Shown here piece after piece: positions 9,695-30,042 of a stretch of DNA of 64,000 nt (position 1 is the stretch's first letter; the number at the start of each line of letters is the position of its first letter). The DNA lies in assembly GCA_951406725.2 (NCBI GenBank), contig OX597821.1, positions 11,284,001-11,348,000 of the forward strand. The letters are read 5' to 3'. The translations under genes and the position numbers were made by a program. Origin of the DNA: Octopus vulgaris (Eukaryota). The notes under the pieces were generated by a model. That model was not told the DNA's origin, searched no databases, and saw only the letters and a list, made by a program, of their open reading frames with translations.

Positions 9695-9700
9695 TTTATT
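9695..9700 (-). promoter_or_regulatory. Candidate poly(A) signal AATAAA of the minus-strand gene
   Basis: Located ~54 nt downstream of the predicted TAA at 9754-9756. Confidence 0.35.
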
Positions 9701-9753
9701 TGTTTGTTTGTTTGTTTGTATTTCTATTTGTTCAGCATAAATTGGAAATAGAT

Positions 9754-9918
9754 TTAGAAACGAAGACGTCTGAAAAAAGAATTCTTATAAGTGACTCTCG
9801 TATAGTCTCTACTAAAATACTTCTTTCGCTTTATTTCTGAAATAATATCTTGTTCGAGTCTGTTTTTGTCCTTTGCCGTGCATAAAATAGGAACAAAATC
9901 TCCTTCATCATCTACACC
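9754..9918 (-). CDS. Predicted terminal exon of an uncharacterised multi-exon gene
   Basis: Acceptor ttattacactag|, phase 0. 54 open codons GVDDEGDFVPILCTAKDKNRLEQDIISEIKRKKYFSRDYTRVTYKNSFFRRLRF*. Confidence 0.6.
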   Translation of the reverse strand, partial: GVDDEGDFVPILCTAKDKNRLEQDIISEIKRKKYFSRDYTRVTYKNSFFRRLRF

Positions 9919-10074
9919 CTAGTGTAATAAATACGACAGGACACATGTAAAATGAATGTAGTATCTTTATGAAAGCGACTACACATATGAGATATGAATG
10001 TAATGACTGAGCGGTCTGGACCCACATTAATATTATCCATCTACTCAGAAGACCGTCATGTAGCTTTGCATTAA

Positions 10075-11515
10075 TCCTTTCTACTATCGACACAGGGCCT
10101 GAAATGTGTTGGGAGGAGCACTGTGCTCAACTGAAACTTATTTTATCACCCAGAAGGGATGAAAAGTAAAATCGACCATGGCAGGATTTGAACTCAGAAT
10201 TTAAAGACGGATGAAATGCTGCTATGTATTTTGCCCCGCGTGTTAACAACGCTGCCACTCGACGCCTTCGGAACTATGCACTAATCTTTTCTACTCTAGA
10301 CACAAGGCCCGAAATTTTTGGGCAGGAGCGCAGTCGATTACATCGACACCAGTACGCAACTGGTACTTAATTTATCGACCCAGAAGGGATGGAAGGCAAG
10401 TCCACCTCGGCAGCACTTGAACTCAGAATGTAAACACAGACGAAATACCTATTTCTTTATTACCCACAAGGGGTTAAACATAGAGGGGACACAGGGACAG
10501 ACAGACGGATTAAGTCGATTACATCGACCCCAGTAAGTAACTGGTACTTAATTTATCGAGCCCGAAAGCTTGAAAGGCAAAGTCGACCTCGGCGGAATTT
10601 GAACTCAGAAGGTAACGGCAGATGAAATACCTATTTCTTTACTACCCACAAGGGGCTAAACACAGAGGGGACAAACAAGGACAGACAAAGGAATTTAAGT
10701 CGATTACATCGACCCCAGTGCGTAACTGGTACTTAATTTATCGACCCCGAAAGGATGAAAGGTAAAGTCGACCTCGGCGGAATTTGAACTCAGAACGTAA
10801 CGGCAGACGAAATACCGCTAAGCATTTCGACAGGCGTGCTAACGATTCTACCAGCTCACCGCTTTTACAGATTAAGAGTATATTCTTTTCCTAGTCCAGG
10901 CACAAGGCCCAAAATTTTGGGGGAGAGGCCAGTCGATAAGATCGACCATGTACACAGCTAGTACTAAATTTATTGACCCCGAAAGGATCAAAGAAGTAGA
11001 CCTCGATGGAATTTGAGCTCAGAATGTAACGGCAGATGAAATACCTATTTCCTTACTACCCACAAGGGGCTAAACACAGAGAGGACAGACAAAGAGATTA
11101 AGTCGATTATATCGACCCAGTGCGTAACTGGTATTTAATTTATCGACCCAGAAAGGATGAAAGGCAAAGTCGACATCGGCAGAATTTGAACTCAGAACGT
11201 TACGGCAGATGAAATACCGCTAAGCATTTCACCCGGTGTGCTAACGTTTCTATTTCTTTACTGTCCACAAGGAACTACGCATAGAGGAGATACACAAGGA
11301 CAGACAAACGGATTAAGTCGATTATATCGACCCCAGTGCGTAACTGGTACTTATTTAATTGACCCCGTAAGGATGAATGGCAAAGTAGACCTCGGTGGAA
11401 TTTGAACTCAGAACGTTACGGCAGATGAAATACCGCTAAGCATTACGCCCGGTGTGCTAACGTTTCTGCCAGCACATGGCCTTTATAAAGAGGGGACACC
11501 ACAAGGACAGACAGA
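10075..11515 (-). mobile_element. Tandem array of about 7 SINE family 2 units
   Basis: Repeated ~185-bp units (gtcgattacatcgaccccagtgcgtaactggtac...gaatttgaactcagaac) joined at gaaatac|ctatttc. Confidence 0.9.
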
Positions 11516-11899
11516 ACAAGACAATGGGGTACATATAAATATATATCAGATGATTTATATGACGAAAATGAGGCTTACTTGCCCCCAAAGCAAGTACTTT
11601 CATTTTACTGTTTTTTAAATTACAATTTTAGAGTACAGTCTTGTATCTTTTTCTTTAACACAAAAATTATAACAAATACTGCATTATATCGGCAAAAATT
11701 ACAACAGGCGGCAGTTCGTCGTATCTATATTGAAGTGGTGTTATTTCAACTCTTTTTTTTTTCCCAAATACTTCTATCCTCTCCCCTCTTTCTCTCTCCA
11801 ACAGCACATCCTTCTTACCTTCATGGTTTGCCATTTTCACTCTGATAACATTTTTCATTTTTGTTACTCTTTTCAATTTCGACGCTTTTTTCATGTACT

Positions 11900-12480
11900 A
11901 TGAGGCTTCTTAAGTTTCATCCCTGTCGGTATGTTCTCTGATATCTTTCACCAGTCTCTTCATTCGACACAATTTTCTCTGTCTCAAATTCGCAGTCTCT
12001 TTCGTCTTCATTCTTCTGTCGTGCTCCTTCTTCCTTACCGGTTAAAGGCAACGGTTCCTGAGTTTGCATTTCACTTGATTTTTCATTTGATTTTCCATTT
12101 TTCTTCTTTTCTCTCTTCTTCTCTTCCTCGATTGTTCTTCTTTTCTTCTCCTTGGGGTTTTAGGTGGTGATTCTAAATTCCTTTTTTATTTTCACCACCA
12201 TAAACTGCTCGTCCATTTTCTCCTCTGCTACAGCTGTACTCTCTTCTTGAATTTCTGTTTCTATTTTTTCCTCATCGTGTTTCTGGGGACTCTTGGTCTT
12301 CATGTGTCCCCTTACTCCACACGCAAAATATATTGGAGGTCTACCTTCCACAACAATCCTTAATTTGGTCTCGTCTGGCACCACCAGCTCTTCCACAATC
12401 TTATGGCGGTCTGGGAGGCTTGTATGGGCTATTACTTCTAGCCCATATCCCCAGCAGCTGACCTATAACAGTTTAACCAT
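11900..12480 (-). mobile_element. LINE ORF1 fragment with degenerate CCHC knuckle
   Basis: LRIVVEGRPPIYFACGVRGHMKTKSP (decayed CX2CX4HX4C) followed by a Glu/Lys-rich segment. Confidence 0.6.
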
Positions 12481-27640: not shown

Positions 27641-27765
27641 TAAGTATTTTCTTAAAAACGATTTCAGACCTCAAGAAATTCCATGGGTTTTCGTCTAGAT
27701 TTTTCCCACTAAACTCGGATACTGCAAAAAAGTGTTCAGGAGTGTTCTTCTCTCCTGACGAAACC
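27641..27765 (-). CDS. Candidate upstream exon (phase 2-1)
   Basis: catctcttttaacag| VSSGEKNTPEHFFAVSEFSGKNLDENPWNFLRSEIVFKKIL a|gtacaa. An overlapping alternative open frame exists. Confidence 0.35.
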
Positions 27766-28726
27766 CTGTTAAAAGAGATGAATTTTTACAATACTCCATA
27801 CTTATTTGTTGTGATAGTGAAACCATTGGTAGGGTCACAATGTAAATACGCGTATCTTGACTCGACTTTGAGTACCTACCGACATACTAATAAAGAAGAA
27901 TGAAGACAAACGCATACACGCACACATATATTTTACTAATGTATACTGTATATATATATATATATATATATATGTATGTGTGTATACACATACACACACA
28001 CATATATATGTATGCATATGTACAAGTACATGTATAATTTATATCCGTGCGTATATATATATATATATATATATATATATCCTTCTTTCCTTCTTTACTG
28101 AGCGTCCAATAATACTATATTTGTTCCACGTACTCGCGTTGTTGTGTTTTTTGTGCTTTCTTGTTTGGATTAACTAACTATATATATATATACGTGTATA
28201 CGAATATATATGTGTGTGTTTGTGTGTGTAAGTGTTTATGGATGTATTTCTTACTTAATTATAGCATTCTTCCTGTAAGCTAGAGGCTGATTTCTCACAA
28301 AGAAAAAAAGTTCCGTTGCTAGACTCTGGATGACAAATTGGCAAGTAATATATGTTGAAGGTTAGAAAAACCTATATTTTCACAGCTTCACTTACAGATT
28401 GTAGGTTACAAATTGTGGCTTAACTGTTCTCTTTCATTTCCAAAAGACTCTAGTGTTTGCTATTGCCGCTCAGAAAATTACTAACATAATTAAATTGTTC
28501 AAGTATTATTTACTGGGTATGAATTTAATTATAATGCCTCCAGGCAAGTTGTAAATTTGTAATCTGTCATCTGTAAATTTTTGCCGTTTTGATTTGGGAG
28601 ACATGATCTTATCGGTATAACAGATGACCTCTTTCAAAATGCAAAATATTAGCATTTCTATCTGCCAAATACTATGAAAGGATTGTCATACTGGCACTAG
28701 TCAGATGCTTTTCTGGTGAAAATATA

Positions 28727-28943
28727 CGAGAAGGTGCTGAAAAGATCATGGCTTTAAGGGTGTCGCTAAAGGCCTGGCTGGTGGCTCAACATATCGGGTT
28801 TTTTTACAGGGCTTCGAAAAACTGAAGGACCGCTGCAATAAGTGTGAGAATTTCAGAGGGGAATATGTTGGATAAAATCATAATTAATAGATCCTCTTGC
28901 ATCTTCTTTTACCCAAAACAAGGAAATTTTCAGCACCACCTCG
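28727..28943 (+). mobile_element. Mariner-derived MITE
   Basis: TIRs cgagaaggtgctgaaaa / ttttcagcaccacctcg, TA on the left. Interior retains degenerate transposase C-terminus (KLKDRCNKC..GEYV). Confidence 0.8.
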
Positions 28944-28956
28944 AATATTTATGTAT

Positions 28957-29340
28957 AGGCATAGAAATGGGTGTGTGGTAAGTAGGTTGCTTACGAACCA
29001 CATGGCTCCGGGTTCAGTCCCACCTTGGGCAACTGTCTTCTACTATAGCCTCGGGCCGACCAAATTCTTGTGAGTGAATTTGGTATACGGAAACTGAAAG
29101 AAACCCGTCGTATATATGTATGTGTGTGTGTGTATGTGTCTGTGTTTGTCTCCCCAACATCACTTGATAAACGATGGTGGTGTGTTTACGACCCTGTAAC
29201 TTAGCGGTTCGGCAAAAGAGACCGATAGAATAAGTACTAGGCTTACAAAGAATAAGTCCTGGGGTCGATTTGCTCGACAAAAGGCGGTGCTCCAGCATGG
29301 CTACCGTCAAATGACTGAAACAAGTAAAAGTGTAAAAGAG
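28957..29340 (+). mobile_element. SINE family 1, near full length
   Basis: tRNA-like head with ggttcagtccc, ccttgggcaa core, and tail gactgaaacaagtaaaag. Confidence 0.9.
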
Positions 29341-29978
29341 TATGCATATATATATATATATATAAGCGGTGCAGGTTGCCAGAAGTTTCGACTCGAGTTA
29401 AATTTAACAAACTACTCCAAATCATTGCAAGAGTAACCGCGAATGTGGAATCAGGACTGATTAGTTTGTATTGGCATCGAGTCCTGTAAGTTGTGATAAT
29501 GAAATCAAGCCAAATGGTAAAATTTGAAATCGCTCAATACATACGCTTCTGTTAGCGTAATACATAACAGAAAATGCCGCTATTATGCCTCTATTACGTA
29601 ACACCTTCAGTTTGATTTCATTATTACAGCTTCTATGCATATATGTGTTTGTGTTTGTAAGCATGGATGTGCAAATATTTGTGAATTGTGCACAATGAAA
29701 GTTAAAATATCTCAATACAGTTAGATGCAAACACTGCTCTTACTTACACAACTAATTTTACGCAATCACACCACGACTGTTAAGTAACATACACCACACA
29801 CGTGCGAGTACACTTACCCATCGACTCATACACTAACAGAAGCACACAAACACACACGTATGACAAACATGTTTCTTAAACGTTTTAACAAAGATTTTGT
29901 TACATAAATGTCGTTGACATTATCTGATAGACGAAGACAACGACCGATGAAAATTACGAAGTCATTGTCAAGGTTTAC

Positions 29979-30042
29979 CTTCTTAGAATAAATAAGCTCG
30001 ACTTCAATATATTGAGTGGCACTTCACATAATATTTTGTCTT
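29979..30042 (-). CDS. Candidate upstream exon (phase 1-2)
   Basis: ttcgtaag| DKILCEVPLNILKSSLFILR ag|gtaaac; phase matches 27641-27765. Confidence 0.3.

Follow-up and report, generated by a model that had tools for sequence, protein, structure and literature searches.

Meiotic HORMAD proteins are laid out as a HORMA domain, a PHD/wHTH region and a closure motif; the middle part, the chromatin-binding region, is optional and often lost, and mammals and most nematodes have lost it outright (PMC10907721). In a window of 64,000 nucleotides of the Octopus vulgaris genome (contig OX597821.1, positions 11,284,001 to 11,348,000), a chain of minus-strand segments (Table 1) would encode a product that, judged from sequence comparison, stands about an even chance of being a strongly diverged member of this family (Hop1/HORMAD1/HIM-3/HTP). 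An earlier note had called the product lineage-specific and impossible to name, which is probably too strong because by eye it resembles meiotic HORMAD proteins.

Table 1. Candidate exons and associated features of the minus-strand chain (positions within the window)
Feature	Position	Strand	Evidence and predicted content
Exon A	29979..30042	-	AG/GT and frame; putative beginning of HORMA helix A, S-x-x-F-x-x-R (a common pattern, 15 matches in the window)
Extra exon (69 nt, phase 2/2)	29564..29632	-	Absent from the earlier list; would carry the helix A end (R-G-I; single pattern match in six frames); weak donor (-4.3 bits), better donor at 29545 incompatible with the next acceptor
Exon B	27641..27765	-	Would hold a strand and helix B (W-x9-K-K-x-L), a by-eye match; strongest acceptor of the chain (top 0.2%), weakest donor
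Exon C	22936..23038	-	AG/GT and frame; would contain two beta strands
Exon D	21836..21911	-	AG/GT and frame; putative strand and helix C, opens the gap-free block with human HORMAD1
Exon E	21601..21671	-	Putative helix C end and next strand; strong donor, weak acceptor; alternative acceptor 21681 has a higher score and a different frame
Exon F	19868..19938	-	G-F-R, would be the safety-belt hinge; exact ends from the unbiased splice and coding search
Exon G	18673..18718	-	Also recovered by the unbiased search; doubtful
Exon H	18444..18538	-	T-x-x-W-H-x-V (one match only across six frames), would close the HORMA domain; recovered by the unbiased search
Exon I	14608..14657	-	83-nt island between microsatellites; weakest exon overall (-5 bits)
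Exon J	12992..13078	-	Putative linker; AG/GT and frame
Last exon, TAA	9754..9918	-	Begins like a PHD but lacks its zinc ligands; a basic patch resembling a closure motif follows; single-sequence fold model uninformative (one helix, pLDDT 62)
AATAAA	9695..9700	-	Possible polyadenylation signal, weak

All 11 segments listed in the earlier note are preceded by AG and the ten internal ones are followed by GT (GTA in every case), with AAG at the three acceptors about which it had cautioned. The joined frame is open and ends in TAA, as claimed, at lengths one codon shorter than those given (253 aa plus TAA for nine exons, 316 aa plus TAA for eleven), and the two alternative frames of the 11-exon join contain 20 and 27 stops. 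Adding the extra exon leaves the frame open (339 aa plus stop). The placement of the exons in non-repeat islands holds for 10 of the 11, the exception being exon G (67% masked by an 18-bp tandem duplication), which is doubtful because its donor end is spanned by contigs that stem from copies of a repeat. The AATAAA does start 54 nt past the TAA; it sits where a CAAA repeat ends, against a background of 1.4 such hexamers per kb. The start codon that the earlier note had left unfixed was not found by us either: the search upstream of 30042 gave no convincing ATG-bearing first exon, the ATG 18 nt upstream of that position is out of frame, and a plus-strand segment with an ATG near 30280 presumably resembles part of a repeat. 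No further symmetric exon was convincing at the search thresholds used, at which the 29632 exon itself fell below the donor cut-off. The gene model is thus probably incomplete, given this extra exon, the absent start codon and the weak donor at 27641.

A phase-compatible chain by itself proves little because equally long chains arise on both strands: a generic splice matrix, with general site frequencies and not trained on the octopus genome, allows 35-44 exons to be chained on each strand at roughly the weaker site scores of the earlier note's chain, and 16-22 exons at stricter scores. The claimed strand is not enriched in high-scoring exon candidates relative to the opposite strand or to 60 shuffles. 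Its splice sites score above background but below expectation (donors 1.4 bits versus 3.7 expected, acceptors 0.2 versus 2.6), and a YTRAY branch-like site is present at only 1 of the 11 acceptors. The ease of building chains, the background density of candidates, the middling splice sites and the scarcity of branch-like sites all favor the view that there is no gene here and that the chain consists of chance AG-GT open segments, selected by eye, of unique intergenic DNA, a view that we consider unlikely. An unbiased search combining splice and coding signals returned three consecutive exons (F, G and H) with exact ends and two further acceptors.

It is the content of the exons, not the chain alone, that exceeds chance. 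Four coding-like features, selected out of roughly a dozen that were tried, each exceed the null GT-AG open chains of this window by 2.5-2.7 SD: helical moment, D+E content, low C+H content and CpG. The features are nearly independent, and their sum is reached by 1 of 600 null chains. CpG amounts to 39.9 per kb in the exons versus about 22 per kb in the 60-nt flanks (p=0.01). Chance selection would account for part of these signals, since choosing the best of three segments per slot erases the D+E and C+H excesses, and it is also in line with the nearly flat GC by codon position (0.39/0.35/0.35) and with a total amino-acid likelihood of the chain that is not significant (p=0.10). However, the CpG excess, which is confined to the exons, outlasts the selection (p ~0.008), the helical-moment excess (z 2.7 versus null chains, outside the best-of-three test) is not a feature that a reader would obviously select for, and the family-like landmarks described below include a segment that had not been picked before. 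The likelier reading is still that of a genuine, strongly diverged gene with several exons, but the phase-compatible chain, its original main argument, carries almost no weight. Taking all real-gene readings together, we consider it likely that the segments are exons.

The family comparison was made by eye against HORMAD.fa (Dataset EV1 of PMC5579357), and such matching is unreliable here because two earlier persuasive by-eye ideas failed profile tests. Once the extra exon, which this reading requires, is included, the landmarks of meiotic HORMA domains appear in order and with near-family spacing, by eye and in patterns defined post hoc. The putative helix A start in exon A is identical to Caenorhabditis elegans HTP-1 at 4 of 7 positions and the helix A end, in the extra exon, at 6 of 8 positions at the homologous place (both by eye); between these two matching ends the helix is polar. 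The R-to-W spacing is 37 residues (36 in human). By eye, the W-to-Y block at exon C aligns without gaps with human HORMAD1 (W and Y 34 residues apart in both, 7 of 35 identical), as does the helix C block that starts in exon D (9 identities over 36 positions); across exons D and E, a gap-free alignment with HTP-1 has 8 identities over 26 positions. Further along, G-F-basic is present, T..WH.V is as in amphioxus, the last exon begins like the PHD of the Schistosoma HORMAD, and a basic K-R-K-K-x-F-S patch lies 19-25 residues before the stop, like the human C-terminus but with the family Pro missing (all by eye). Three landmark patterns, drawn after viewing the peptide, have a single match apiece across all six frames of the unmasked window, and these matches follow the family order on the minus strand. 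Junctions 27641 and 21601 are no more than 4 nt away from family introns that a read-through amphioxus model suggests; the third such intron, after P-F-H, has no counterpart in the octopus chain.

By eye, the product resembles human HORMAD1/2 and the amphioxus and Nematostella HORMADs (PF02301) in landmark order and spacing, the basic C-terminal patch and two intron positions within 4 nt, but its best blocks are only about 20-25% identical to these proteins, its putative domain is about 14 residues longer, and F-P-E, L-P and P-x-x-Y-x-P are missing. Among the core motifs common to the vertebrate, amphioxus and cnidarian rows, only half of Y-L-R-x-x-F-P-E survives, there is no L-P behind helix C, and the product lacks P-x-x-Y-x-P and both F of E-x-Y-x-F-x-F; only R-G-I and G-F remain of the motifs Y-x-R-G-x-F-P-E, L-P and P-x-x-Y-x-P-x-G-F. 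The nematode rows too alter the first and third of these motifs, yet retain L-P. C. elegans HTP-1, HTP-2 and HIM-3 have diverged about as deeply, and the group matches the octopus product by eye in the altered helix A end and in a helix C block without gaps (both compared with HTP-1), which does not imply shared ancestry of the altered motif; HTP-1 retains the L-P that the octopus product lacks, and the nematode rows show no PHD relic. The HORMA-PHD-wHTH HORMADs of Schistosoma, Nematostella and Amphimedon resemble the octopus chain in having a linker of about 60 residues followed by a PHD-start-like segment. In contrast to them, the octopus product keeps only one Cys ligand, has no His and leaves no space for a wHTH; by eye, the PHD-like start is all that is left of the PHD/wHTH region, the zinc ligands being lost.

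The loss of core motifs and PHD ligands might also point to a decaying HORMAD duplicate, that is, an unprocessed pseudogene with recognizable exons and no remaining selection. The same can be said of further family-like short words seen by eye in other frames near 27641, 21601 and 19938, and of the 2-4 nt by which two introns miss the inferred family positions. Nevertheless, a single frame runs through 339 codons uninterrupted and all GT-AG ends are intact, and so deep a divergence without stops is improbable in neutral DNA, so that we regard decay as very unlikely.

It is possible, but we think rather improbable, that the segments belong to a spliced, tissue-restricted gene of another or unrecognized family, an orphan by divergence whose likeness to HORMADs is coincidental. 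The coding-like signals are independent of family, and the last exon has no homolog among 1.84 billion representative sequences, in which phmmer gave three matches, all repeat-summation artefacts; against 5.8 billion proteins (96-2000 aa), none of its 6 candidates held up. Pfam searches with nine single exons and nine natural ORFs, and PDB searches with five such queries, were empty, below cut-off or irrelevant, with no HORMA match; Atlas was empty for two exons and Rfam gave 0 matches. The ordered HORMA landmarks and the fit of the extra exon are nevertheless left unexplained by another family. Within this alternative, a diverged CENP-N/Chl4 protein (PF05238) is a minor and highly improbable lead: several short matches to CenpN.fa are collinear by eye, but the product has neither the family's three near-invariant Trp nor its F-G motif, and its C-terminal spacing does not fit. 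Possible resemblances to an FtsJ-type methyltransferase and to flavodoxin were also noted.

Two further families were rejected. Four profiles of the NAT16/HisAT double GNAT family (71, 14, 69 and 83 sequences, with family identity checked for the prokaryote set) gave glocal Z values of 0.0-1.0, versus 8-16 for positive controls; the reversed peptide outscored the real one, the catalytic and acetyl-CoA motifs are absent, and the likeness is limited to a superficial alpha/beta pattern. A bacterial TIR profile of 29 sequences gave no match, and 241 of the 1129 reported shuffles did at least as well as the one SEFIR sequence; this comparison covered bacterial profiles, leaving out a locus from the unpublished genome G041 on which nothing here depends.

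An RNA check compared four sequencing runs, three of them RNA-like and the fourth probably DNA, with positions 17600-20600, which hold 3 of the 11 exons. The word shares were small and came from repeats, no run covered exon H, not even the probable DNA run, and none of the joints listed for the three RNA-like runs falls at 19868/18718 or 18673/18538, which is uninformative either way.

With their splice dinucleotides, open frame and coding-like composition, the segments are likely exons of a real, probably germline-restricted gene, whose splicing, family, expression and function we infer. If it is a HORMAD, the first nine exons (extra exon included) would fold as a HORMA domain, followed by a linker of about 60 residues, a PHD finger relic devoid of zinc ligands and, at the C-terminus, a basic closure motif. 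By analogy with the family, the safety belt would close around the closure motifs of either an axis-core protein or further HORMAD copies on meiotic chromosome axes, the protein would promote double-strand breaks and inter-homolog recombination, and Pch2/TRIP13 would remove it.

A search of Table EV1 of PMC10907721 for mollusc or lophotrochozoan names gave no match, and no literature joining cephalopod, HORMAD1 and testis was found. Should the HORMAD assignment be wrong, the locus would at best be one more unannotated tissue-restricted octopus gene. Should it be right, it would identify a core meiosis gene that had been overlooked in a lineage without a match in that HORMAD table, and would represent an intermediate step in the loss of the chromatin-binding region. 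We tentatively raise the possibility that octopods carry an unannotated HORMAD, either their sole one or a second paralog, that is as diverged as the nematode HTP proteins and midway in the loss of its PHD chromatin reader; cephalopods would then have rewired their meiotic axis independently.

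The segment coordinates given in the earlier note for the gene model all proved accurate, with AG preceding 11/11 segments and GT following the 10 internal ones, and their join carries, as claimed, a single open frame, which spans 316 codons and ends in TAA, the remaining frames having 20 and 27 stops. The reported AATAAA is likewise present 54 nt downstream of the stop, where a CAAA repeat ends. A further segment, absent from the original list (29632-29564), fits between the first two exons and leaves the frame open, lengthening the product to 339 aa. No start codon was found for the gene model, and its 5' end is ambiguous; exon 18718-18673 is doubtful because repeat-copy contigs map over its donor end. 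The window as a whole is AT-rich animal DNA, rich in microsatellites and short interspersed repeats, and its repeat families look octopus-like.

Features of the window, in window coordinates
Position	Strand	Feature	Remarks
30042-29979	-	exon
29632-29564	-	extra exon	phase 2/2; weak donor
27765-27641	-	exon
23038-22936	-	exon
21911-21836	-	exon
21671-21601	-	exon
19938-19868	-	exon
18718-18673	-	exon
18538-18444	-	exon
14657-14608	-	exon
13078-12992	-	exon
9918-9754	-	exon
29829-30020	-	64-codon open frame	overlaps exon 30042-29979 in a different frame; Pfam match sub-threshold only
21518-22036	-	173-codon ORF	runs through exon 21911-21836, the 164-nt intron and exon 21671-21601 in a second frame; possibly intron retention or an alternative acceptor (21681); no Pfam or PDB match
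11500-12600	-	purine-rich, E/K-rich open frames	within last intron; account for most of the crude exon score; likely the remains of a mobile element in decay
4575-6410	+	611-aa reverse-transcriptase ORF	Pfam RVT_1, E 1.5e-28; with 3782-4528 upstream, a broken non-LTR element
3782-4528		presumed endonuclease-like piece	upstream of the reverse-transcriptase ORF
32300-33800	-	short ORFs	presumably a decayed GIY-YIG/Penelope-type element, split by an AAT repeat
41712-42278 (-), 23832-24284, 24287-24700 (-)		transposase remnants	taken to be mariner-like and piggyBac-like
45119-45218		assembly gap (100 N)	upstream of the gene model

The alternatives to a strongly diverged meiotic HORMAD (HORMA-domain) gene are a chance chain, a decaying copy or another real gene. 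By itself, the chain of segments is not more than chance: a generic splice matrix, not trained on this genome, allows 16-44 exons to be strung together in compatible phase and free of stops, on both strands and elsewhere in the window, so that the compatible phases stressed in the earlier note do give one open frame but are no sign beyond chance. Nor is the density of good exon candidates raised on the claimed strand (5 candidates reach 7 bits there, whereas the plus strand has 6 and 60 shuffles average 4.1 +/- 1.9). Donors average 1.4 bits (background -3.8, matrix expectation 3.7) and acceptors 0.2 bits (background -2.9, expectation 2.6), and a YTRAY site accompanies only 1/11 acceptors.

Exon content, on the other side of this question, is more than chance. 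Four features picked out of about a dozen (helical hydrophobic moment, D+E, low C+H and CpG) each lie 2.5-2.7 SD above what is seen in 600 null chains, assembled from open GT-AG segments of the same window; they are almost uncorrelated, and their sum is reached by 1/600 null chains. The CpG excess ends at the exon edges. The D+E and C+H signals could arise from by-eye exon selection, and the overall amino-acid score has p=0.10. An unbiased splice-plus-coding search recovered exons 19938-19868, 18718-18673 and 18538-18444 with exact ends, and for exons 27765-27641 and 9918-9754 it returned the acceptors, in the originally proposed frames.

As to another real gene, protein, family, structure and Atlas searches returned no homologue of single exons, the queries being short and made up of one exon each, or else natural ORFs that read on into introns. 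A NAT16/HisAT identity, considered against parts of PMC12219266, was rejected, with no match to four profiles built from prokaryote, protist, cnidarian and fish members (glocal Z <=1.0, the reversed peptide scoring higher, controls Z 8-16); TIR/SEFIR failed the test against bacterial profiles. Short collinear matches to CENP-N were seen by eye in the portion of Dataset EV1 of PMC5579357 used, and the invariant Trp and F-G residues of that family are missing from the product. Separately, several prokaryotic proteins (P0004-P0006, P0008, P0017; 590-703 aa) fuse a HisAT-type GNAT to a PerM/AI-2E-type permease domain (PF01594), metagenome contigs hold intron-less, cnidarian-type NAT16-like genes (L125, L130, L136, L137, L139), and four loci (L132, L133, L135, L140) look like protist NAT16-like members, which are nearly absent by the account in the relevant part of PMC12219266.

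The HORMAD reading comes from by-eye comparison, extra exon included, with about 18 animal rows in the first part of HORMAD.fa (Dataset EV1 of PMC5579357). Against C. elegans HTP-1, the start and end of helix A are 4/7 and 6/8 identical, with two extra residues between them in the product; the R-to-W spacing is 37 in the product and 36 in human HORMAD1, with which the W-to-Y block, 34 apart, aligns without gaps at 7/35 identities. The helix C block, also ungapped, is 9/36 identical to human and 8/26 to HTP-1. G-F-basic lies 5 residues later than the family position and T..WH.V a further 9 later. The last exon opens like the Schistosoma PHD, about 60 residues further on and with a single Cys kept, and its basic patch resembles the human C-terminal motif. 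A mispredicted amphioxus model implies introns after K-K-Y and Y-Y-D-D, 4 and 2 nt from junctions 27641 and 21601; its third implied intron has no counterpart. Six family patterns occur in family order within the product, and no shuffle of 20,000 held more than two, a result that overstates the case, the patterns having been drawn after the peptide was seen; in six frames of the unmasked window, three occur once each, a fourth has three hits and a fifth 15, and the sixth arises solely across a junction. Counted against HORMAD are the weak donor of the extra exon, the lack of a start codon, a helix A that turns polar mid-way and the absence of the family's F-P-E, L-P, P-x-x-Y-x-P and F-x-F strand residues. 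By rough estimate, a HORMA profile score would be borderline. Since two earlier by-eye family ideas failed on testing, we do not assign the product to the family; judged from sequence, the chances that this is a live HORMAD-derived gene seem about even.

From family knowledge and the part of PMC10907721 used, the HORMA domain of meiotic HORMADs binds closure motifs of axis-core proteins and of other HORMADs, Pch2 takes HORMADs apart, and a PHD/wHTH region is present in most members and lost in mammals and most nematodes. On the same basis, the octopus product may have lost zinc-dependent chromatin reading while retaining a closure motif. Expression of its gene would be confined to the germline, as would suit a gene that is apparently unannotated. 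Within PMC10907721, Table EV1 yielded no mollusc terms, and our literature search found no cephalopod HORMAD study.
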